From the IMG/VR virus record IMGVR_UViG_2657245439_000011, positions 1 through 12,712 of that record: a stretch of 12,712 bases of DNA. One strand, 5' to 3'. Made by a program: the position numbers and the translations under genes. Position 1 is the first letter of the stretch. Every line of letters begins with the position of its first letter. The DNA comes from a virus (Duplodnaviria; Heunggongvirae; Uroviricota; Caudoviricetes). The notes beneath the pieces are model-generated. The model searched no databases. It worked only from the letters and a program-made list of their open reading frames with translations, and was not told where the DNA came from. Below, one piece after another: positions 284-12,712 of this stretch.

Positions 284-748
284 CTAGATTCGTCTCGCCT
301 GCCAGAAATTTTTCTGCCAATAAACATTATCGAGTGAGGAACGCATCACTCCCTTGCTGGTAGAGGCGTGGATAAATTGGTTGTTGGTATCATAAATACC
401 TACATGCAAACCATTTTGTCCGGAGCCCGTTTTGAAAAAGACCAGGTCACCAGGCAGCAACTCGTCTTTATCAATTTGCGTGCCGATAGAGGCTTGTTCT
501 TTGGTTTCTCGGGGCAGCTGCAAATCGAAACGATCGCGCATCGTCACAACCACAAACCCCGAACAGTCCACACCGCGCCGCGTCATGCCACCATAACGAT
601 ACGGCGTGCCATGCCAGCTCTGTAGCTGGTCGTTCAAACCGGCAATAACGGTAATCGAATCAGAAAGTCTGGCATTTGGCGGCGGTGCTTTATGGTGGCT
701 ACACCCGGCCAGAAACAGTGCTGTGATCAAAATAAGGCAGAAACGCAT
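284..748 (-). CDS. nlpC: NlpC/P60-family lipoprotein (cell-wall endopeptidase family)
   Basis: 154-aa ORF with ATG at 748. Signal peptide with lipobox LAGC, catalytic-Cys context DCSGFV and His context GLHVGIYD typical of NlpC/P60. Near-identical to my recollection of E. coli NlpC, and in the expected position next to btuD. Confidence 0.95.
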   Translation of the reverse strand: MRFCLILITALFLAGCSHHKAPPPNARLSDSITVIAGLNDQLQSWHGTPYRYGGMTRRGVDCSGFVVVTMRDRFDLQLPRETKEQASIGTQIDKDELLPGDLVFFKTGSGQNGLHVGIYDTNNQFIHASTSKGVMRSSLDNVYWQKNFWQARRI

Positions 749-825
749 TCCGTACGGTTCCTCTGTTTTTTATTCTTGCATTAATTTAGCGTCGTAATTA
801 CCCGATTTTCAAGATACTAATGAAA

Positions 826-1575
826 TCAGATGGTCGAAATCAGCATTCTGTGACCTTCGATATCCAGACGGCGAAAATTCATCCCATAGGCCTGCGCCAG
901 ATTTGGCGGCGTGAGCACCTCTTCCCTGCGTCCACTGGCCAGCATTTTTCCACCTTTTAGCAACCACGCCCGATGCGCATGACGCAATGTATGGTTGAGA
1001 TCGTGACTGCTCATCACAATCGCCAGTCCTTGCTGACACAGCGCGCTCAGAATTTTGTCTAATGCACTTTGTTGCGCAACATCAAGACTGTTCATAGGCT
1101 CATCAAGAAGTAGTAATTGGCCTGCGGGATTGGCTTGTGGTGTGATTTGCAGCACCACCGCAGCAAGACGTACGCGTTGCCATTCGCCGCCGGAAAGTTG
1201 ATTGGTGCTACGTCCGAGTTTGTCATCAAGAGCCAGCGCCCCTGCGACATCATTCAGTAGTTCGGTACGCGTTTTATCGTGCTGATGCAGTGTCAGGTAG
1301 TGCCAGACCGGCATTGCAAACGGCGGCGTCTGCTGTTGTGAAAGATAGGCGCGATGCAGCGCGAGTTTTGTTGCGGACCATGCTTCCAGTGGTTGCCCCG
1401 CGAACTGAATGCTTCCCTTACCGCTGGTCATTCCGGCCATTCGTGCAAGCAAGGTACTCTTACCCGCGCCGTTCGGCCCCACCAGGTGCAGGATCTCCCC
1501 AGCCCGAACCTCGCCAGAAAGCGGCCCCAGGCGGGTAGATTCCGCAACATCCTGTAACTGCATCACAATAGACAT
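826..1575 (-). CDS. btuD: Vitamin B12 ABC importer ATP-binding subunit
   Basis: 249 aa. Walker [13 protein letters not shown] signature LSGGEWQR, Walker B LLLLDEP. Start ATG shares one base with the btuE stop (TAATG), as in E. coli btuE-btuD. Confidence 0.97.
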
Positions 1576-2126
1576 TATTTTGCCAACGCCAGTTTAATGC
1601 TTTCCATCACAATGGGATCTTCCGGCGTCATATCCGGGGAAAAACGCTGGATGACCAATCCGTCCCTGCCAACTAAAAATTTCTCAAAATTCCATAAAAT
1701 ATCATCAGGGTACAGCGGTGCACGACCTTTGCTGACCATACGGGCATAGAATCCGCTCTCTTCCGGCGCGACTGCGGTCGGCGCTGCGGCAATCAATTTT
1801 TGATACAGCGGATGGCGTCCTTCGCCATTAACTTCAATCTTACTGAACATCGGGAACGTCACCCCCCATGTGGTGGTACAGTAAGTTTTAATCTCTTCAT
1901 CGCTGCCCGGTTCTTGTTCCAGAAACTGGTTGCACGGGAATCCCAGCACCACAAAACCACGATCGGCCCAGGCTTTCTGAATATTCTCCAACTGCTCATA
2001 TTGCGGCGTTAAGCCACACTTTGAGGCGACATTGACAATCAACAGCACATTACCGGCGTACTTCTCCAGCGTGGTCACTTCACCGTCGATATCTTTCACT
2101 ACGGTCGTCAGAATGGAATCTTGCAT
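1575..2126 (-). CDS. btuE: Glutathione peroxidase-family protein
   Basis: 183 aa. GPx motifs NVASKCG (peroxidatic Cys), [15 protein letters not shown]. Matches E. coli BtuE as recalled. Confidence 0.97.
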
Positions 2127-2188
2127 CGTTTCTCCTGGGTGTGGTCAGTAAAAATCTTAGCTTTTAATCATAGACCGTCTTTTTGCGG

Positions 2189-3169
2189 CTAACGTCCTGC
2201 TTTTAACAATAACCAGATAAACACCGGCGCACCCAACGTTGCGGTGACCACGCCAATAGGCAGCTCTGCGGCAGCTAATGCCAGGCGCGCTACAATATCG
2301 GCCAGCAGCAATGCGCTCGCCCCTGCCAGCGCGCAGCCGGGAAGTAATACGCGATGATCGGTTAAACCACACAGCCGGAGAATATGGGGGATCACCAGAC
2401 CAATAAAGCCGATAGCACCCGCCAGCGCCACACTGACGCCAACCATCCAGCCGGTCGCTGCCACCAACACATTGCGCCAGAACCACAGGGGTAAACCCAG
2501 TTGCCGCGCCGAGATCTCGCCAAGTGCTAACATATTCATTGGCCTGGACTGACAACAGATCCACAACAACACGGGGATCAATGCCAGCATCAGCCAGCTT
2601 TGCCGCCAGTCTACGCCGCCAAAACCGCCCATCATCCAGTACATCAGCTGACGTAAATCAACAGAGGTGGAAAAGTAGATAGCCCACGTCATTAGTGCGC
2701 TACAGATAATCCCTAATGCAACGCCAGCCAGCAATAACCGACTGGTCGAAAGATGACGACGGGCGAAACGTAAGAGTATTAAAGTGATGATAAGCGCGCC
2801 AGCAATCGCACACAGCCCCAGCGCCCAGTTGGGGAGTTGCCCTTGCCCAAGCAATACCGCGGCGATAAGCCCCACGCCTGCGCCATTAGAGACGCCAAGT
2901 AGTCCAGGTTCTGCCAGAGGATTTTCGAACAACGCCTGCATTACAGCGCCGGATATAGCCAGCGCCGCACCAACCAGCAATACAGCCAGCGTACGTGGCA
3001 GGCGAATTTGCCAGACGAACAGTTCGCCACGAGGAGTAAACCAGTCACCTGGCGAGATCCATTGTTCACCGGCGCAAAGGCTTAAGAGAAGCGCCAGCAG
3101 CATCAAAACTGACAGGCATAATAACCAGCGAATATTTTGTCGCTGTTGTTGGCGGGCAAGTGTCAGCAT
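2189..3169 (-). CDS. btuC: Vitamin B12 ABC importer permease
   Basis: 326 aa, highly hydrophobic polytopic protein, ATG at 3167-3169 (minus). Matches E. coli BtuC as recalled. Confidence 0.97.
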
Positions 3170-3232
3170 GGTATCCGTTCTGCTGAAGTGTCATGGCGTT
3201 GATTTTACGGTGACTCTTCGACAGTGAAAAGA

Positions 3233-3253
3233 AAAAAGGCCGCAGAGCGGCCA
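3233..3253 (-). terminator. Rho-independent terminator (minus-strand sense)
   Basis: Minus strand reads GGCCGC-tct-GCGGCC followed by TTTTTT (plus coordinates: stem 3239-3244 / 3248-3253, A-run 3233-3238). Sits between the element and the btuC start; may be the retained host terminator or the terminator of the int/orf131 transcript. Confidence 0.55.
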
Positions 3254-3358
3254 TAAACACAAACAAAAATCAATAAGTTAGATAATTATCAAAGACTTAC
3301 AGACACACAAAAACACAGCCAACCACAACAAATAACAGGGATGTGGTCACTTTGTGGA

Positions 3359-3754
3359 TCATTCGCTCCCCTCTTTTTCCTTATTTCGTTGAACGCCAAT
3401 TGCGACACACGTACTAAGCAAATCTTTACATTTCTCTACATCTTCAGACTTACGCAATTTGATGCTTTTTACAGACTGCGGGCTACTGTCCGTAGCACGA
3501 TACATCGTTATTTCAATATCATTTCGGTCTAAGAGTCCCATAATGGCTTTTGCAACCTCCACACCCTTCTTCGCGAAATCAAAGAACAGAGCAAGTTTAT
3601 ATGGATTTTCGACGGAAAAAACTTCAATTTTGCTAAAACCAACATCGTGTAGAGAAAAATATTGCTCAACCTCATCTCGAAGTTCTGGATCGCATACAAT
3701 GTCTATTCTCCAGTACTGACCTAAATGCAAATCGCTATTAACTGTTTTTTCCAC
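3359..3754 (-). CDS. Hypothetical protein, AT-rich accessory gene between int and the host junction
   Basis: ORF track gives 3359..3775 from TTG. I prefer the in-frame GTG at 3754-3752, preceded by AAGGAGG (minus strand, plus coordinates 3766-3760) at 5-nt spacing; this SD overlaps the int stop codon. Visibly more AT-rich than int. No recognisable motif and no TM segment. Confidence 0.55.
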   Translation of the reverse strand: MEKTVNSDLHLGQYWRIDIVCDPELRDEVEQYFSLHDVGFSKIEVFSVENPYKLALFFDFAKKGVEVAKAIMGLLDRNDIEITMYRATDSSPQSVKSIKLRKSEDVEKCKDLLSTCVAIGVQRNKEKEGSE

Positions 3755-3764
3755 AACATCCTCC

Positions 3765-4739
3765 TTACCCAGCAATAGGATTAAATCTCACCGCATCCTG
3801 CAAGTAATCCGGCGCAAGATGGGCATAAATCATCGTTGTCTGAATCTTTGCGTGCCCCAGAATTTTCTGGAGCGTCAGAATATTGCCGCCGTTCATCATG
3901 AAATGACTGGCGAAGGTGTGGCGCAGCGCATGAACAGCCTGGCCGTCAGGAACATCAGGTGCGACCGTTTTGATGACATCGCGAACCAATGGATAATCCA
4001 GCGTCGGAAACACCAGTTTCCCGCCCCGTTTTTTGATCTTTTCAAACAGGCTTTCAGAAATAGGAACGGTACGGTTTTTGCTGTTCTTCGTTTTTGAAAA
4101 AGTGATTCGACAATGAAGAACACGGCGCTGCTCCAGTGCCGCTACCTCGCCCCATCGCGCCCCGGTCGACAGAAGGATTTCGACAGCCAGCCGTTCATCG
4201 GGATTTTCAGCCAGTGCATCCAGCAACTGAACACATTCAGACTTACTCAGATATCCCATTTCGCGCTCGTTAACCTTCATTCCTTTAAGGCCTTGAACGG
4301 GGTTATCGTTAAGAAAATGGCCGGATGAGATGAGTGCGGTAAACATCGCGCTTAACGCCCCAATCTCTCGATTAATGGTGCTGGGCTGTATCCCCTGCTC
4401 TATCCTGGACACACGTAGCTCGGTGAGCATCGTTGTATTAAGTTTATGCACACACGGGTCATCCATTGCCTCACTCAAGCGCAGCAATTTAAGGCGCGTG
4501 TTATGCCCTGACTTCATTAGCTGGCCGTGGTATTTCCACCACAAGTCAATAAGCACCGACAGCGGACGGCGATCAATGGAGTTTCCTTTCCACTCATTGT
4601 TATGCTGTTGCGCCAGCACCCACCGCTCATATAAAACTGCATCCGATTTCGTTTTAAATTTTTTGCGAATGCGTTTGCCTTTACGCCCCTCAGGGCGCAT
4701 GTCAAGAAGATACCCTCCCGGAATTGATTTTATGCTCAT
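3765..4739 (-). CDS. int: Tyrosine recombinase, P2-type phage integrase
   Basis: Box I arginine TGARWGE, box II HALRHTFASHF, nucleophile Tyr in TTMIYAHL. N-terminus MSIKSIPGGY...GRKGKRIRKKF resembles P2 Int (recalled MAIKKL...GRNGKRIRRKF). The ORF track start (4889) is rejected in favour of ATG 4739-4737, which matches the family N-terminus and does not overlap the upstream gene. Confidence 0.93.
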   Translation of the reverse strand: MSIKSIPGGYLLDMRPEGRKGKRIRKKFKTKSDAVLYERWVLAQQHNNEWKGNSIDRRPLSVLIDLWWKYHGQLMKSGHNTRLKLLRLSEAMDDPCVHKLNTTMLTELRVSRIEQGIQPSTINREIGALSAMFTALISSGHFLNDNPVQGLKGMKVNEREMGYLSKSECVQLLDALAENPDERLAVEILLSTGARWGEVAALEQRRVLHCRITFSKTKNSKNRTVPISESLFEKIKKRGGKLVFPTLDYPLVRDVIKTVAPDVPDGQAVHALRHTFASHFMMNGGNILTLQKILGHAKIQTTMIYAHLAPDYLQDAVRFNPIAG

Positions 4740-7090: not shown

Positions 7091-7480
7091 ATGATTGACG
7101 CTCATGACTTCACAAGATGGGTGCGCACACAGGACACCCGTCTGGCTCCCATTCTTCGGGGATTATTTGATCTCTACATTCGTGGTCGTGACAACAGAGC
7201 ACGCACCACAAAACCGGAGAATGTGGATACCCTTTATTTCACAGTAGACGACTGCTACCGCGTGGACTTCACACCACACGGACTGGCGTTGCACTGCCTG
7301 ACACCGCACGGCGAATCACTGCTGGCGTATTACGACTCCCCGGCCTCCGTATTTGCGGCAATGCTGGCGCATCGCACTGCTGGCGGGTGTGTCTCGCTGA
7401 GTGAATACACCGCTGAATTTAACCGCCTTTCCACCATCTTCTTGCAGGAGTGGCAGCGCGTGACGGGATACCAGCCATGA
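7091..7480 (+). CDS. Hypothetical early protein (129 aa) immediately upstream of the replication gene
   Basis: ATG 7091; stop TGA 7478-7480 overlaps the ATG (7477) of the replication initiator. Confidence 0.55.
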   Translation: MIDAHDFTRWVRTQDTRLAPILRGLFDLYIRGRDNRARTTKPENVDTLYFTVDDCYRVDFTPHGLALHCLTPHGESLLAYYDSPASVFAAMLAHRTAGGCVSLSEYTAEFNRLSTIFLQEWQRVTGYQP

Positions 7481-10296
7481 GTGAGTTTGCATGGAGCTGG
7501 AATGAACCACGACCAGCCATTGATCCGGCCAGATTTACGGAGCACAGGCAGGAAACTGAAACCGACCTGCAACGCGCCATCCGTTACTACCTTGAGGCAG
7601 ACAAAAAGGCCCTGGAAGAACAGGAAGCGAAGGAGGAAGCCTTTTTCGCACAATCCACCGTGGGTAAAAAACTCATGGCATCCCTTGAGGAAGCCGGACA
7701 GCGTGAAAAGCTGGCACAAAGCATCATCAGCAAGCGTCAGGCAACAGAACAAGACCCGGTGGCCCGTGCTTTTGCCACACTGAAAGTGCTTCCCGTTTAT
7801 CTGCGTGAACCTCTGAGCCGCCACCTCTCTTTCCTGCGCAAAAAACAGGAATCCGATCGTCAGAAAGGCAAAAAGAGCTGGCAGGCTGAACGCTACGCGC
7901 GCGGAAACCTGCGCAAAATATTCGAACGCCTGGAACGCACCGATCACCGCTGGCTGACACCGGGTTATCGCTCCCTTACCGGACGCGAACGCCTGGACGA
8001 TTTGCTTTACCTGCCGCAGCTCAACAAACACCAGATACAGACGCTGGCCACCATGACGGCGGCGATGTTCAGCAGCACCTTCGAAAAACTCTGCGATAGC
8101 TTTGGCGCGACTGATGGCGAGCTGACCATGGATGTAACGCTGAAGGCGTATCAGATGCTGGCCCGCATGGCGTTACACCTGCACGCCATGCCTCCACATT
8201 ATGACGCACTGACAACAGACAAAGACCGGAGGAACGAACCGGACACGGAGCTGCTGCCGGGCGCAATCCTTCGCCTGACCTGTGCGGAATGGTGGAAACG
8301 CAAACTGTGGCTGTTACGTTGCGAGTGGCGGGAAGAACAACTCCGCGCCGCCTGTCTGGTTTCCAGAAAAACATCGCCCTATCTGAGTCAGGACGCATTA
8401 AGCGAGTTTCGCGCGCAGCGCGAGAAAACACGCGATTTCCTGAAAAGTTTCATGCTGGAAAACGAAGACGGGTTCACGATTGATCTCGAGACAGTGTATT
8501 ACGCGGGAGTAAGTAACCCGGTTCACCGTAAGGCAGAAATGATGGCCACCATGAAGGGGCTGGAACTTCTGGCCGAAGCCCGTGGCGACAGAGCGGTGTT
8601 TCTGACTGTCACCTGCCCGTCAAAATACCACGCCACAACAGAGAACGGTCATCCGAATCCCAAATGGAACGGGGCCACCATGCGCGACTCCAGCGATTAC
8701 CTGGTTAACACGTTTTTTGCGGCAGTCCGCAAAAAACTGAACCGCGACGGTCTGCGCTGGTATGGCATCCGCACGGTGGAGCCTCACCATGACGGCACCG
8801 TGCACTGGCATATGATGGTCTTTGCTCATCCGGAAGAAATCGACAGCATCGTGGCCATCACCCGCGATATTGCCATTCAGGAAGACCGCCACGAGCTGGG
8901 CAATGATATTACTCCGCGCTTTAAGGTGGAGTATGTCGACGGCTCAAAAGGCACACCAACCAGCTATATCGCGACCTACATCGGAAAAAACCTGGACAGC
9001 CGCGCCGTGGATGGCATCGACCCGAAAACGGGCAAGCCACGCGTTGACCACGAAACCGGAAAATCAATGGCCGAGAGCGTGGAACGCGCCATCGGCTGGG
9101 CGCGCCTTCACCGGGTTCGCCAGTTCCAGTTCTTTGGTATCCCCTCCCGTCAGGTGTGGCGTGAACTGCGCCGCCTTGCCAGCCAGATGGCACGCAACCC
9201 GGAAGGCCCGCAACGGCTGAAGGATGACGCAATGGATGCGGTACTCGCTGCCGCTGATGCCGGATGTTTTGCCACCTACATTGAAAAACAGGGTGGCGTG
9301 CTTGTTCCACGCAAGGACTACCTGATTCGCACCGCCTACGACCTCGCAGATGAGCTGAACGATTACGGCGAACAGAGCGTACAGATTTACGGGATCTGGT
9401 CACCACTCATCGGGGAATCCTCCCGTGTGTGCACGCATCCGGATAACTGGAAGCTGGTAAGACGTAAACCAGAACCGGAAGACAACGCCCACGAAAATGG
9501 TTTTGACCTTCAGGGCGGCCCTGCCGCCTCTTGGACTCGTGGCAATAACTGTCCCCGTGTACAGGAAACGGACAACAACGGGACAGAACAGCCGGAAGAA
9601 CGGCCAGCACCGTGGCCGCAGCTCCCTGACGGCGTTGAAGTGAACGAATGGGTGCGCTCACTGAAACGGCACGAACGCCGGGCGCTGATGCGTTCGCTTC
9701 GTGACAAACAGGCAAAAAACAGCAGTGATGAAATGCAGAGCTGGACACAGAGCCGCAAACAGCAGCGGCCTTTGCCTGATAACCACGAATTACTCGCTAA
9801 AGAATGGCGGGAGTCTGCTGAATCTCTCGGCCTGCATATCGGTGAACAGCAGATGCAGCACCTGTTACGGGGCGGCAGCCTGTACGTTGACGGCAGCATC
9901 ATTGCACCGCAGGGATATGAAATTGTACGTAAACCGGATACCCGCCCGGACAGCCGAATCACGCAGCTCTGGCAACGCCTGAGCCGTAACCACGGCGTAA
10001 GCAGCACGGAGATCCGCCATAACCCGGTCGCCAGCTATCTGGAACAACTAGGGGCATCAGACCCTGAAGCCGCCGCACGCCTGGCATCCACACTTCAGCA
10101 AGACCAGAACACCATGAAAACACCCGTTACCGTACTTTCTGACATGCTGCGCGCCATCCGCGACGCAGAGCACGAACAGAGAATCAGTGAAACAACTGAA
10201 CGCGCCCGCCGCAAAGCAGACCTGCTGCGGGGTGGCCTGACCAGTGGAAACAAAAAACAGACAAAAACGGGATTTAAAAATCCTGTAACCGATTAA
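7477..10296 (+). CDS. Rolling-circle replication initiator (HUH endonuclease, phage P2 gene A / phiX174 gene A superfamily)
   Basis: HUH motif in GTVHWHMMVF; catalytic tyrosine pair in YIATYIGK (Y-x-x-x-Y-x-x-K). Start taken as ATG 7477 (ATGA overlap with the upstream stop) rather than the track's GTG 7450; 939 aa. Long low-complexity, charged C-terminal region after the catalytic core. Confidence 0.9.
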   Translation: MSEFAWSWNEPRPAIDPARFTEHRQETETDLQRAIRYYLEADKKALEEQEAKEEAFFAQSTVGKKLMASLEEAGQREKLAQSIISKRQATEQDPVARAFATLKVLPVYLREPLSRHLSFLRKKQESDRQKGKKSWQAERYARGNLRKIFERLERTDHRWLTPGYRSLTGRERLDDLLYLPQLNKHQIQTLATMTAAMFSSTFEKLCDSFGATDGELTMDVTLKAYQMLARMALHLHAMPPHYDALTTDKDRRNEPDTELLPGAILRLTCAEWWKRKLWLLRCEWREEQLRAACLVSRKTSPYLSQDALSEFRAQREKTRDFLKSFMLENEDGFTIDLETVYYAGVSNPVHRKAEMMATMKGLELLAEARGDRAVFLTVTCPSKYHATTENGHPNPKWNGATMRDSSDYLVNTFFAAVRKKLNRDGLRWYGIRTVEPHHDGTVHWHMMVFAHPEEIDSIVAITRDIAIQEDRHELGNDITPRFKVEYVDGSKGTPTSYIATYIGKNLDSRAVDGIDPKTGKPRVDHETGKSMAESVERAIGWARLHRVRQFQFFGIPSRQVWRELRRLASQMARNPEGPQRLKDDAMDAVLAAADAGCFATYIEKQGGVLVPRKDYLIRTAYDLADELNDYGEQSVQIYGIWSPLIGESSRVCTHPDNWKLVRRKPEPEDNAHENGFDLQGGPAASWTRGNNCPRVQETDNNGTEQPEERPAPWPQLPDGVEVNEWVRSLKRHERRALMRSLRDKQAKNSSDEMQSWTQSRKQQRPLPDNHELLAKEWRESAESLGLHIGEQQMQHLLRGGSLYVDGSIIAPQGYEIVRKPDTRPDSRITQLWQRLSRNHGVSSTEIRHNPVASYLEQLGASDPEAAARLASTLQQDQNTMKTPVTVLSDMLRAIRDAEHEQRISETTERARRKADLLRGGLTSGNKKQTKTGFKNPVTD

Positions 10297-10320: not shown

Positions 10321-11280
10321 ATGAAAATTTGTATCGACGACGGCTCCACCAACATCAAGCTGGCATGGACTGAGAACGGCGAACACCGCAACGCCATCAG
10401 CCCGAACAGCTTCAAGTCGGAATGGTCTGCGCCGTTCGGTGGCACGCAGCCCGCGAACTACATGCTTGATGGCGTGCGCTATGGTTTTGATCCGGTCAGC
10501 GATCGCTTTGTCCAGACGACCGACACGCAATACCAGTACAGCGATGTGAATGTCATTGCCATTCATCATGCGCTGGTCAAATCAGGCATCACGCCACAGG
10601 AGGTGGATGTGGTTGTCACCCTGCCACTGAGCGAGTATTTCGACACAAACGCACAGCCGGACATGGCCAACATCAACCGCAAAAAAGCGAACGTTATGCG
10701 CCCGGTGGAGTACCAAAACGGCGAGGCATTCACTATCCGTAACGTGCGGGTTATGCCTGAATCCATTCCGGCTGGCTTTAAAGCACTGGCTGACATGAGT
10801 CCGTTTGAATCCCTGCTGATTGTGGATTTGGGCGGAACCACGCTGGATGTGGCAAAGGTTCAGGGGCAACTGGCAGGTATCAGCCAGGTGTTTTGCGATC
10901 CACACGTAGGCGTTTCTCTGATGGCCGATGCCGTGCTGTCGGTGATGGCCACCAACGGTATGCGCACCAGTCACCACATCGCCAATACCATTATCGAACA
11001 TCGCCACGATGAAGCCTGGCTGCGCCAGCACATCCACAATGACGCGCATTACGCCAGCCTGATGGCAGTTATTCGTGAAAAGGAGGAAACACTGAAACAA
11101 CGCGTGATCCGCGCGCTGGCGGTTTTTTCGGGTTACGGGCGGGTGATGGTTGTCGGTGGAGGGGCGGAGATTGTGGCACCCGCTATCCGCGAAGCCTGCG
11201 GAGTTAATGCGACTTTCATCGCGGACGGGGTGCCACAGTTTGCTCTGGTTAATGGGCTGTACGCAATGGACAAGGAGTAA
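10321..11280 (+). CDS. parM: Actin-like segregation ATPase, ParM/StbA family
   Basis: 319 aa. N-terminus MKICIDDGSTNIKLAW (R1 ParM recalled as MLVFIDDGSTNIKLQW). Phosphate-2 motif IVDLGGTTLDV and adenosine motif VMVVGGGAEI. Similarity appears to run the full length. SD AAGGAA upstream. Confidence 0.9.
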   Translation: MKICIDDGSTNIKLAWTENGEHRNAISPNSFKSEWSAPFGGTQPANYMLDGVRYGFDPVSDRFVQTTDTQYQYSDVNVIAIHHALVKSGITPQEVDVVVTLPLSEYFDTNAQPDMANINRKKANVMRPVEYQNGEAFTIRNVRVMPESIPAGFKALADMSPFESLLIVDLGGTTLDVAKVQGQLAGISQVFCDPHVGVSLMADAVLSVMATNGMRTSHHIANTIIEHRHDEAWLRQHIHNDAHYASLMAVIREKEETLKQRVIRALAVFSGYGRVMVVGGGAEIVAPAIREACGVNATFIADGVPQFALVNGLYAMDKE

Positions 11281-11284
11281 ACCA

Positions 11285-11596
11285 ATGACGACTCCAACCA
11301 GACGGATAAGTTTCTATCTGAAGCCCACCGCCGTCAAGAACGAAGGAGAAGCATGCGCCTGGCTGGACAGCCTTACACCAGAAGCCCGCAAAAGCGGCCA
11401 ACGCGTGGCTTTTCTGGCCGGGCTGGCACTTCTGAAAATGAATCCGGCAGAGGCTTACCGACTGGCTGCATGGGCTGATGATGAGGTGTTATCAGTGACA
11501 CAAACCAAGACAGAACGCCCCGCGTCACAGCCAGTATCAACCGCACAGATAACCAGTCAGATGGCCGGAAATATCCGGGCGTTATTTCCTGAATAA
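11285..11596 (+). CDS. parR: ParR/StbB-like centromere-binding adaptor
   Basis: 103 aa from ATG 11285 (GGAG 10 nt upstream), directly after parM. Resembles R1 ParR as recalled: ISFYLKP vs IAFKLNP, LDSLTPEARKSGQRVAFLAGLAL vs LDSIPQGERSRLNRAALTAGLAL, C-terminal NIRALFPE vs ILRSLFPKE. Confidence 0.75.
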   Translation: MTTPTRRISFYLKPTAVKNEGEACAWLDSLTPEARKSGQRVAFLAGLALLKMNPAEAYRLAAWADDEVLSVTQTKTERPASQPVSTAQITSQMAGNIRALFPE

Positions 11597-11599
11597 CAT

Positions 11600-11670
11600 C
11601 AGGGCGTATTCGCCCTGCCACCAATCCCATAACATAAAGAACGGGGTGCAAATCACTATACACCCCGTTC
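11600..11670. other. Two GC-rich hairpins immediately downstream of parR
   Basis: Hairpin 1: CAGGGCG-tatt-CGCCCTG (11600-11617). Hairpin 2: GAACGGGGTG-12 nt loop-CACCCCGTTC (11639-11670). Neither is followed by a clear plus-strand U-tract; hairpin 2 has a modest T-rich tail on the minus strand. Confidence 0.45.
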
Positions 11671-11881
11671 CAATACAAACCATCAGAAGATCTACACATC
11701 TTTCTCAAATGGCCAAGTAATCGAGCTGGTTCAGGAATAAGCATGCTGCCAACACAAGTGAAGGAGATAAAACTGTAGAACTGATCAATCGTTGGAAACA
11801 AGTATTGACAGTATGTTCGAGTAACCCAACTGGATAGATTTTATGCTGATTATCCATACAGTAAAAAAGTAAGGATACTCT

Positions 11882-11910
11882 TTGAATTACGCCAGAAAGA
11901 GTGGTAACAT
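11882..11910 (+). promoter_or_regulatory. Candidate sigma70-type promoter for the downstream AAA ATPase gene
   Basis: TTGAAT (11882-11887), 17-nt spacer, TAACAT (11905-11910); about 65 nt upstream of ATG 11975. Hexamer match only. Confidence 0.3.
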
Positions 11911-11974
11911 TAGTCAATGATTTTCATTAATGTAGTTACCAGCTTACACAAGCTGATGTTTTATTGGGGGTTTT

Positions 11975-12712
11975 ATGGTAAACGTGAGGGAGGATGAACT
12001 TTTCAAACTCATCGAGCAAGGCATCAAAGGCAACGCAAATGCATTTACACTCCTATGCAGAAAGATGATTAACAACATCCGTAAAAATGATGAGGCTTTA
12101 GCTTCTAAGCTGGCTTCGTTAGTTGCTGAGGGAACAGTATTACGTGGGGCATCTAGTAAGGCTCCTATGCCTGTGGATGGAGACTCCAGACGAAACCTTT
12201 TGCAGGAAACATCTGTCAACGCAATTGTTGAAGAACCTGTATGGAATACGGATATCTCAAAGAAGCTGGAGTCAATTGTTAACGAAAGAGAGAATGCGGT
12301 TTCTTTGTTCAAAGCTGGTCTTGAACCTGTGAAGACGGTTTTACTTTCTGGCCCGCCAGGCGTAGGCAAAACAATGTCCGCACATTGGCTTGCTGCAAAG
12401 TTAAATTTACCTCTTTTAACATTGGATCTCTCATCTGTAATGAGTTCTCTTTTGGGAAAAACAGGTAATAATATTAAATCCGTTATGGATTATGCCAAAG
12501 AGAAACCATGTGTCCTTTTGCTTGATGAATTTGATGCTGTTGCAAAAAGACGTGATGATGACAGGGACGTTGGAGAATTAAAACGTTTAGTTACTGTACT
12601 CCTACAGACCATAGATGAGTGGCCAGCGACCTCGCTTCTTGTTGCTGCGACTAATCACCCTGATATCTTAGATCCGGCTGTTTGGCGTCGATTTGAGCAC
12701 ATCCTTAAATTT
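11975..12712 (+). CDS. Classical AAA ATPase, 3' end truncated by the window (first 246 codons seen)
   Basis: Absent from the ORF track because it has no stop inside the window. In-frame stop at 11954-11956, first ATG at 11975 with a GGGGG run 4 nt upstream. Walker A GPPGVGKT, Walker B VLLLDEFD, sensor-1 AATN, second-region-of-homology HPDILDPAVWRRF (arginine finger). About 120-aa N-terminal domain of unknown type. Gene and upstream spacer are visibly more AT-rich than the rep/parMR block. Confidence 0.8.
   Translation, partial: MVNVREDELFKLIEQGIKGNANAFTLLCRKMINNIRKNDEALASKLASLVAEGTVLRGASSKAPMPVDGDSRRNLLQETSVNAIVEEPVWNTDISKKLESIVNERENAVSLFKAGLEPVKTVLLSGPPGVGKTMSAHWLAAKLNLPLLTLDLSSVMSSLLGKTGNNIKSVMDYAKEKPCVLLLDEFDAVAKRRDDDRDVGELKRLVTVLLQTIDEWPATSLLVAATNHPDILDPAVWRRFEHILKF

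Follow-up and report, generated by a model that had tools for sequence, protein, structure and literature searches.

Directly behind the genes for replication and partition in a P2-like prophage, the DNA analysed here (a stretch of 12,712 nucleotides, referred to as the window) drops in GC content and enters an open reading frame for an AAA ATPase, which is cut by the end of the window. This raises the question of what the gene belongs to: the regular gene complement of the phage, an accessory or defence system with further components past the window edge, or an AAA protein of yet another kind. The overall best explanation, to which we assign a probability of roughly 0.85, is an IetAS cargo cassette that most likely works as an abortive infection system of the toxin–antitoxin type. 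Taken by itself, the assignment of the edge-cut gene to ietA, which opens the two-gene IetAS cassette and is visible here for its 5′ two-thirds, can be regarded as nearly certain.

The window starts in the bacterial chromosome with nlpC-btuD-btuE-btuC on the minus strand (284-3169) and then crosses into a P2-like prophage, whose left arm carries an integrase, the repressor/cox region, gene A, parM, and a parR-like gene. This prophage has integrated beside btuC. Its backbone is a mosaic: in a megablast search with the whole window, 0 complete RefSeq genomes match end to end at 99% or more, and the backbone left of the cassette is nearer to O26:H11-type prophages than to the prophage of E. coli O127:H6 E2348/69, whose copy of the cassette extends past the window edge. 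The parM and parR-like genes are neighbours of IetAS in the hotspot between the phage genes gpA and gpQ and lie outside the IetAS system. The coordinates of all features are collected in Table 1.

Table 1. Features of the window from gene A to the window edge (nucleotide positions in the window; aa, residues of IetA)
Feature	Position	Strand	Basis or remark
rep (replication endonuclease gene A)	7450-10296		GC 0.564
parM	10321-11280	+	GC 0.555; Pfam StbA_N 2.7e-82, ParM C-terminal domain 6.3e-69
parR-like plasmid-stability gene	11285-11596	+	GC 0.542; Pfam Plasmid_stab_B 6.7e-24
Conserved backbone tail	11597-11641	+	Sister-prophage alignments run to 11641-11646; megablast matches end at 11598-11638
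GC-rich hairpin	11600-11617		Just 3′ of the parR stop codon, inside the backbone tail
Perfect hairpin with 10-bp arms	11639-11670		Inverted-repeat search
AT-rich start of the mobile cassette, 5′ of ietA	11642-11974	+	blastn junction mapping, inverted repeat, GC 0.394
ietA upstream region of 143 nt, moving with the cassette in three phage contexts	11832-11974	+	blastn
Conserved block upstream of ietA	11845-11867		Alignment of three phage contexts
Candidate promoter: TTGAAT, 17-nt spacer, extended -10 TGgTAACAT	11882-11887 and 11902-11910	+	Conservation
ietA, codons 1-246 of 360, edge-cut	11975-12712	+	PADLOC IetA; DNA identity to the E2348/69 gene
IetA N-terminal domain (aa 1-121)	11975-12337	+	Without Pfam family; conserved across the IetA family
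Classical-clade AAA module	12338-12712	+	Pfam AAA PF00004, aa 122-247, 9.6e-31
Walker A, GPPGVGKT (aa 126-133)	12350-12373		
Walker B, LLLDEFD (aa 181-187)	12515-12535		
Sensor 1, AATN (aa 224-227)	12644-12655		
Second region of homology with RR, HPDILDPAVWRRF (aa 228-240)	12656-12694		

Where does the foreign DNA begin? The spacer between the parR-like gene and ietA (11597-11974) has a GC content of 0.394, compared with 0.54-0.56 for the preceding rep, parM, and parR genes. The preliminary description of this DNA had spoken of an AT-rich spacer of 380 bp; the drop in GC content stands, but the length is 378 bp and the first 45-50 nt are still backbone. Since this first part (to ~11645) matches the backbones of sister prophages, the foreign cassette starts at ~11642-11646, and pairwise blastn against these prophages places the left junction at ~11641-11646. 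On the right side, homology returns 47-54 nt past the ietS stop codon in pairwise blastn. As the homology to the sisters thus stops at ~11617-11645 and returns ~50 nt past ietS, the DNA in between constitutes a swappable cassette of 3.66 kb. Its composition departs from that of its surroundings: the GC content is 0.39 in ietA and 0.43 in ietS, and the phage genes on either side have 0.53-0.56.

The DNA in front of ietA travels together with the gene. In the window, the blastn alignment starts at 11832 for the copy of a Plesiomonas lambdoid prophage (75.6% nucleotide identity) and at 11714 for that of phage phiT5282H (95.8%). Both hexamer blocks of the candidate promoter are kept in 3/3 contexts, and the spacer between them is variable. 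A consensus scanner reports no plus-strand promoter in the spacer and gives the candidate site a score of 8/12, below its threshold. Judged from the conservation, the site at 11882-11910 may be the cassette's own promoter, and the conserved block at 11845-11867 a possible operator for the helix-turn-helix (HTH) of IetA. On the RNA level, an Rfam scan of 11400-12200 at E<=1 returned no family, and folding of 11918-11990 gave z = 0.14, i.e., no more structure than in shuffled sequence. A hairpin at 11940-11955 had been considered as a structured 5′ UTR element on account of one compensatory change in phiT5282H; the fold z-score lends it no support, and this candidate was dropped.

The ietA reading frame begins with ATG at 11975, with GGGGG upstream at 11966-11970, and stays open for 246 codons through the last base of the window (GC 0.423); the same start is used by RefSeq in E2348/69. 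All 738 visible nucleotides are DNA-identical to the start of the gene for WP_000248600, a protein of 360 aa from this strain annotated as 'AAA family ATPase', and over the 1513 nt of 11200-12712 the sole difference between the two genomes is one spacer base at 11896, A in the window and C in E2348/69. The catalytic motifs of the AAA module—Walker A (GPPGVGKT), Walker B (LLLDEFD), sensor 1 (AATN), and the arginine fingers (WRRF)—are intact. For the part in front of this module, the Pfam search of IetA gives no match before aa 122. However, IetA aligns to its counterpart from the Ti plasmid pTiC58 with 32% identity over aa 8-253 (E 1e-45), and hence conservation within the IetA family extends to the N-terminal domain. 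What had been read from the letters of this gene in the preliminary description is thereby borne out: the frame is open from its ATG to the last base and cut by the window edge, the four AAA motifs including HPDILDPAVWRRF are all located in it, and the unassigned N-terminal domain of about 120 aa corresponds to ~121 aa without a Pfam match.

The nearest solved relatives of IetA are the D2 module of p97/VCP, Cdc48, NVL, and PAN, with E-values from 1e-38 to 3e-21. From the alignment with solved AAA relatives, LLG (aa 159-161) is read at the position of pore loop 1. A search of solved structures found none for IetA or IetS; the matches are generic AAA proteins and, weakly (E 2e-4), subtilisin-like proteins. 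At the C terminus of the full-length protein, past the window edge, an HTH at aa 335-359 reaches 26.7 bits with HTH_50, narrowly missing the cut-off of 27, and 26.7 bits out of 30 with TIGR04381.

A name for the system is provided by profile searches with the complete E2348/69 proteins. The full-length ATPase matches the PADLOC profile IetA (PDLC02196) with an E-value of 3.6e-89 and 297.8 bits, whereby aa 7-356 cover profile positions 5-370 of 374, and the 246-aa fragment from the window reaches 1.1e-77 on its own. The protein encoded next to it matches PADLOC IetS with 6.6e-41 and 138.4 bits, aa 22-707 covering positions 24-718 of 749. As a positive control, the founding pair from a C58-type Ti plasmid was run against the identical library; its scores, 239 and 85.6 bits, stay below those of the E. 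coli pair. In NCBIfam, IteA_antiphage and IteS_antiphage are the top and only specific matches of the pair, with scores below equivalog level: 253.1 bits versus a cut-off of 510 for IteA and 115.7 versus 900 for IteS. Because these scores are so far under the cut-offs, PGAP gives the pair only generic labels, and the pair is best described as a divergent IetAS subfamily. They are no argument against family membership, since the E. coli pair lies just as far from the founding pTi pair.

These scores also bear on the idea that the AAA protein comes from another system, being either an FtsH-like protease or a TRIP13 remodeller of the CBASS type. GenBank record MG589387 (phiT5282H) names the homologue 'ftsH: ATP-dependent zinc metalloprotease', and PADLOC TRIP13 profiles match at 4e-13. 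Yet the TRIP13 match amounts to 47 bits against 298 bits for IetA, and FtsH_fam gives 66 of 600 bits. The 360-aa protein contains neither an M41 peptidase nor a membrane segment, and at the E2348/69 locus no HORMA or CD-NTase gene is adjacent, an S8 peptidase being the only neighbour. The resemblance to FtsH and TRIP13 is limited to the generic AAA core; both assignments were rejected, and such an origin is extremely improbable.

The S8 peptidase leads to the second gene of the IetAS cassette. In E2348/69, the ietA stop overlaps by 4 nt (ATGA) the start of a co-directional gene for a 734-aa S8 family peptidase, WP_000970615; the gene order is rep, parM, parR, ietA, ietS, a 504-bp gap, the portal (Q) and terminase genes on the opposite strand, and the P2 late genes. 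This IetS protein matches Pfam Peptidase_S8 (4e-17) and carries the catalytic set D281 (AIFDGG), H311 (HGNEV), N414 (VGNDG), and S496 (GTSYASP) in subtilisin-like spacing, invariant among aligned homologues. These catalytic residues were assigned by motif; around the Asp, the automatic alignment with pTi IetS is unreliable. Linkage of ietA and ietS is seen in all 32 complete E. coli genomes that have the ATPase at ≥80% coverage, in phage phiT5282H, in the Plesiomonas prophage, and on pTi. In each of these 32 carriers the whole 3.66-kb unit is complete at an identity of at least 96.6%, and in 31 of them at 99% or more.

For the window copy, ietS would accordingly be expected just past the edge, as in these near-identical genomes. 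The cassette might instead have decayed in this particular genome, with ietS truncated or missing; the window stops inside ietA, and the mosaic backbone finds no complete RefSeq genome that matches it end to end at the 99% level. Against decay speak the identity of the visible gene part to an intact ietA, the single differing base in the 1513 nt compared, and the completeness of the cassette in 32/32 carrier genomes, so that we consider this quite improbable.

The IetAS cassette is mobile, and its ATPase is present in only 32-34 of 5426 complete E. coli genomes. Enterobacter phage phiT5282H (Peduoviridae) bears ietAS directly after rep, at 95.8% identity and in the same hotspot layout, and a lambdoid prophage on a Plesiomonas megaplasmid bears it within the lysis module at 85% amino acid and 75.6% nucleotide identity. 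IetA homologues are furthermore found in 574 plasmid records, 378 of them conjugative.

In E2348/69 and phiT5282H, the cassette is located between gene A and the portal gene Q, next to cos. This gpA-gpQ region of P2-like phages—the site of tin/old in P2—has been described as a defence hotspot in a survey of 18,150 loci with 1,650 arrangements, and about one in four P2-like phages carries a plasmid partition system within it (Rousset et al. 2022, Cell Host Microbe, PMC9122126). In Table S5B of the same study, rank 7 (400 loci in the P2 hotspot) bears the label 'ietAS (Gao et al., 2020)', and the representative IetA given for it agrees with the E2348/69 protein at every residue. Both proteins, in precisely this location, are hence already catalogued as ietAS; our identification is correct but not new.

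The closest matches to the remainder of the window are prophages of O26:H11 and other strains inserted at this btuC-side site, 99.1% identical up to 11598-11638. In O26:H11 11368 and M21816, they match at 98-99% up to 11617-11645 and then continue with other cargo. The prophage of O26:H11 strain 11368 has a single gene for a hypothetical protein of 135 aa instead of ietAS, and that of M21816 an ead/Ea22 pseudogene and a frameshifted gene. This exchange weighs on the view that the AAA ATPase is a housekeeping phage protein of replication, morphogenesis, or packaging, for which one could invoke a position immediately 3′ of rep and parMR, with the packaging genes further downstream. A gene of this kind would not be expected to be missing where the insertion site is shared and the prophage backbone is 99% identical, and this absence was taken to exclude a housekeeping role. 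The scarcity of ietA among E. coli genomes, the foreign composition of the cassette, and the occurrence of the same pair outside P2-like phages, namely on Ti plasmids and in the unrelated lambdoid prophage, likewise make such a role barely credible. ietAS is non-essential cargo in the gpA-gpQ (tin/old) hotspot.

What the preliminary description had proposed for the locus as a whole agrees with these results. The variable slot equivalent to tin/old in P2 is the published hotspot, from which ietA is absent in 99%-identical sister prophages. The AAA ATPase, suggested to open a defence or accessory cassette with partners past position 12712, is followed by an S8 peptidase gene that overlaps it by 4 nt in 32/32 complete E. 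coli genomes. HMM searches and PADLOC, applied to the full-length protein and its neighbour in E2348/69, name the system IetAS (3.6e-89 and 6.6e-41). Across prophages, the neighbourhood proves to be conserved in the ietS partner, and the content of the locus is swapped between near-identical P2-like prophages. The contrary outcomes that had been named included morphogenesis, replication, or housekeeping genes and an absence of conserved partner genes; what was found instead are matches to IetA and IetS profiles and a linked partner.

What does the cassette do for its carrier? According to later papers, IetAS was first found on pTiC58 as a stability and incompatibility system of the toxin–antitoxin kind, with a serine protease as toxin and an AAA ATPase as antitoxin. 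SgiAT of Salmonella Genomic Island 1 (SGI1) acts as a toxin–antitoxin system in E. coli and promotes maintenance of the island. For a three-gene variant, ietHAS, defence needs the protease activity, and ietA mutants could not be constructed (NAR 2026). The ietAS of B. cereus m1293 defends by abortive infection, for which expression of YosG from phage SPbeta is the trigger (Stokar-Avihail et al.), and the ietAS of E. coli ECOR52 gives limited protection alone and shows synergy with Zorya II (Wu et al.). The 3′ ends of the ECOR52 ietAS primers (Wu et al.) have no match in the cassette or its flanks at up to 3 mismatches. Our literature search found no experiment on this exact P2-hotspot variant, and literature of 2026 still states explicitly that the molecular mode of action of IetAS is unknown.

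Transferred to the E. coli pair, these observations suggest the following picture. IetS would be the toxic effector, and IetA would use ATP to hold it harmless in uninfected cells, presumably acting on IetS through its AAA remodelling activity. A protein of a superinfecting phage might then upset this restraint; proteolysis by the freed IetS would stop the cell, and the competing phage would not spread. Such an abortive infection would protect the population of lysogens and, with it, the prophage. The same toxin–antitoxin logic could also stabilise the carrier element. Moreover, the C-terminal HTH of IetA might autoregulate the cassette promoter at ~11882-11910. Homologues alone are the source for four of these points: the pairing of toxin and antitoxin, the dependence on the protease active site, the abortive phenotype, and the triggering by a single phage protein. 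For the present variant, we consider an anti-phage function likely, and a toxin–antitoxin or abortive infection mechanism somewhat less so, albeit still the favoured option.

Alternatively, ietAS might mainly be an addiction module, i.e., stabilise the prophage or a plasmid-like form of it by post-segregational killing together with ParMR, rather than provide anti-phage immunity. The discovery of IetAS as a stability/incompatibility system of pTiC58 and the promotion of SGI1 maintenance by its homologue SgiAT fit with this, as do the position of the cassette directly after parM and parR in the window and the frequency of IetA homologues on conjugative plasmids (378 of the 574 plasmid records). 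However, the two modules occur independently of each other: phiT5282H has ietAS but no parMR, the O26 and M21816 prophages carry parMR and lack ietAS, and the Plesiomonas copy of ietAS sits in a lysis module. In addition, the locus is a documented defence hotspot, and homologous ietAS systems protect against phages. Addiction as the main function is hence unlikely. The two roles are not mutually exclusive, and a contribution of addiction to prophage maintenance is plausible.

Less probable still, the phage-borne clade may follow a mechanism other than that of the systems validated on plasmids and in Bacillus. IetA could be a DNA-bound sensor or autoregulator that reads the replication of superinfecting phages, or ietAS and ParMR could together form a partition-plus-addiction kit for extrachromosomal persistence of the P2-like element. 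An IetAS cargo cassette that most likely acts by toxin–antitoxin-type abortive infection remains the reading that we prefer over both.

As the pair has already been catalogued and standard defence finders detect ietAS, the locus is of little discovery value. It is rather useful as a calibration point: composition, position, and AAA motifs alone sufficed to recognise hotspot cargo. For experimental work, an E. coli-native variant of 3.3 kb, combined with natural isogenic prophages that do not contain the cassette, would be a convenient handle, and this compact variant could become a tractable model for the mechanism of IetAS. The general puzzle of these systems is by what means the AAA ATPase keeps a subtilase in check, and which substrates this protease cuts.

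A comparison with known systems places the pair at several levels. On the level of the fold, IetA shares the AAA core with p97/VCP, Cdc48, PAN, and FtsH—Walker A, Walker B, sensor 1, and a second region of homology with two arginines. It differs from the classical AAA unfoldases by a single AAA module, an N-terminal domain of its own, and the C-terminal HTH, and the position of pore loop 1 reads Leu-Leu-Gly in place of their aromatic-hydrophobic-Gly. On the level of the locus, tin and old of P2 occupy the same slot between gene A and cos/Q and play the same role of non-essential exclusion cargo, whereas the proteins are unrelated.

Among two-gene systems, the founding pair IetA/IetS of Agrobacterium pTiC58 (Yamamoto et al. 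2009) has the same gene order, ATPase and then S8 protease, and is likewise tightly coupled; both pairs match the PADLOC profiles. The pTi pair is hosted by a Ti plasmid, the E. coli pair by a phage. The alignment to pTi IetA (328 aa) stops at ~aa 253 and does not reach the HTH region at the C terminus of E. coli IetA, and pTi IetS (836 aa) and E. coli IetS (734 aa) are beyond pairwise BLAST similarity (E 0.33). This distance of IetS and the HTH of IetA may be pointers to a differing mechanism. SgiAT (S026/S025) also combines an AAA-ATPase antitoxin with a subtilisin-like toxin, a relation experimentally established in E. coli. It is nearer to the pTi pair (50% identity to IetA, 36% to IetS) and resides on an integrative mobilisable island; its likeness to the E. 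coli pair is drawn here by description.

The anti-phage ietAS systems (Gao et al. 2020; B. cereus m1293; ECOR52) share the two-protein architecture and form the basis of the defence annotation in PADLOC, DefenseFinder, and NCBIfam. With respect to these, the E. coli pair is well under the NCBIfam equivalog cut-offs and is not the ECOR52 allele. From three-gene ietHAS (NAR 2026), the E. coli cassette is set apart by having no SNF2 helicase gene. Within E. coli, the P2-like prophage of E2348/69 differs in the visible part of the cassette at 11896 only, whereas the left backbone of the window is nearer to the O26:H11 type. The closest counterpart of all is the P2-hotspot ietAS (Rousset et al. 2022, system 7; WP_000248600 and WP_000970615), which is the same system, and of which the window encodes the first 246 IetA residues.

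By sequence comparison, the window is a mosaic that looks to have arisen from cassette exchange, via recombination at the hotspot—the variable cargo slot between gpA (rep) and gpQ of P2-like phages. The backbone, from position 1 to about 11617, shares 99.1% identity with prophages of O26:H11-type strains, whose cargo differs. For the window's cargo, the match is instead E. coli O127:H6 E2348/69, at 99.9% identity; the breakpoint between these two parts falls at about 11617-11645. Among complete RefSeq E. coli genomes, none reaches at least 99% identity across the whole window, and the best full-length match, SK1144, attains 97.7% in three pieces. The rep ORF encodes 948 aa in the window versus 940 aa in E2348/69, and its frame offset differs too.

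The cargo is ietAS, a cassette of an AAA ATPase gene (ietA) and an S8 peptidase gene (ietS), and further copies reside in an Enterobacter phage and on a Plesiomonas plasmid (table). On the latter, a 396 kb replicon, a lambdoid-type prophage has the cassette inserted into its lysis module, with an M15 endolysin on one side and a DUF2514 gene on the other—hence, this two-gene unit moves between unrelated phage types.

Features in the window and ietAS copies elsewhere
Feature	Location	Strand	Context
Hypothetical ORF, 131-138 aa	window 3359-3775	minus	between btuC and integrase, prophage left end
ParM/ParR plasmid-partition pair (parMR)	window 10321-11596		directly 3' of gene A in integrated P2-like prophage
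Conserved block GCTGATTATCCATACAGTAAAAA	window 11845-11867		5' of ietA; kept in 75%-identical Plesiomonas copy
TTGAAT / TGgTAACAT pair, 17-nt spacer of variable sequence	window 11882-11910		5' of ietA; kept in Plesiomonas copy
Hairpin CAGCTT-acac-AAGCTG, then T-rich run	window 11940-11955		20 nt 5' of ietA start codon
ietAS, Enterobacter phage phiT5282H	L004 5269-8552		directly after rep gene, without parMR
ietAS, Plesiomonas shigelloides plasmid pPS-MS-17-188-1	L006 4866-8284		85% aa identity

RefSeq goes no further than "AAA family ATPase" for IetA and "S8 family peptidase" for IetS because the equivalog cut-offs of the NCBIfam models (510 and 900 bits for IetA and IetS) exceed the scores of the P2-borne subfamily (253 and 116 bits) and are thus too high for it. 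The models themselves, NF042959 and NF042956, are named "IteA" and "IteS", with transposed letters. In GenBank MG589387 (phiT5282H), the IetA homologue is labeled "ftsH: ATP-dependent zinc metalloprotease", a misannotation caused by the AAA core that both proteins share.

Upstream of ietA, the conserved block and the hexamer-type pair are, judged by their retention, a candidate operator and promoter; the sole base that differs from E2348/69 (11896) is located within the spacer of this pair. In phiT5282H, a G-C pair in the stem of the hairpin is replaced by A-T, a compensatory change, but folding of the surrounding region does not outperform that of shuffled sequence (z 0.14), so the hairpin lacks support as a structured element.

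At the left end of the prophage, the small hypothetical ORF lies in an AT-rich stretch (about 3200-3800; GC 0.40 around the ORF), and its product has no match in Pfam or PADLOC. It could represent an additional small cargo or moron slot adjoining the attachment site.

Rousset et al. (PMC9122126) speculate that partition genes in P2-like prophages permit plasmid-like maintenance, and the ietAS-type toxin-antitoxin system was first described as a plasmid stabiliser. The combination of a partition pair with a system of such origin in one prophage is suggestive, but each of parMR and ietAS is found elsewhere without the other.
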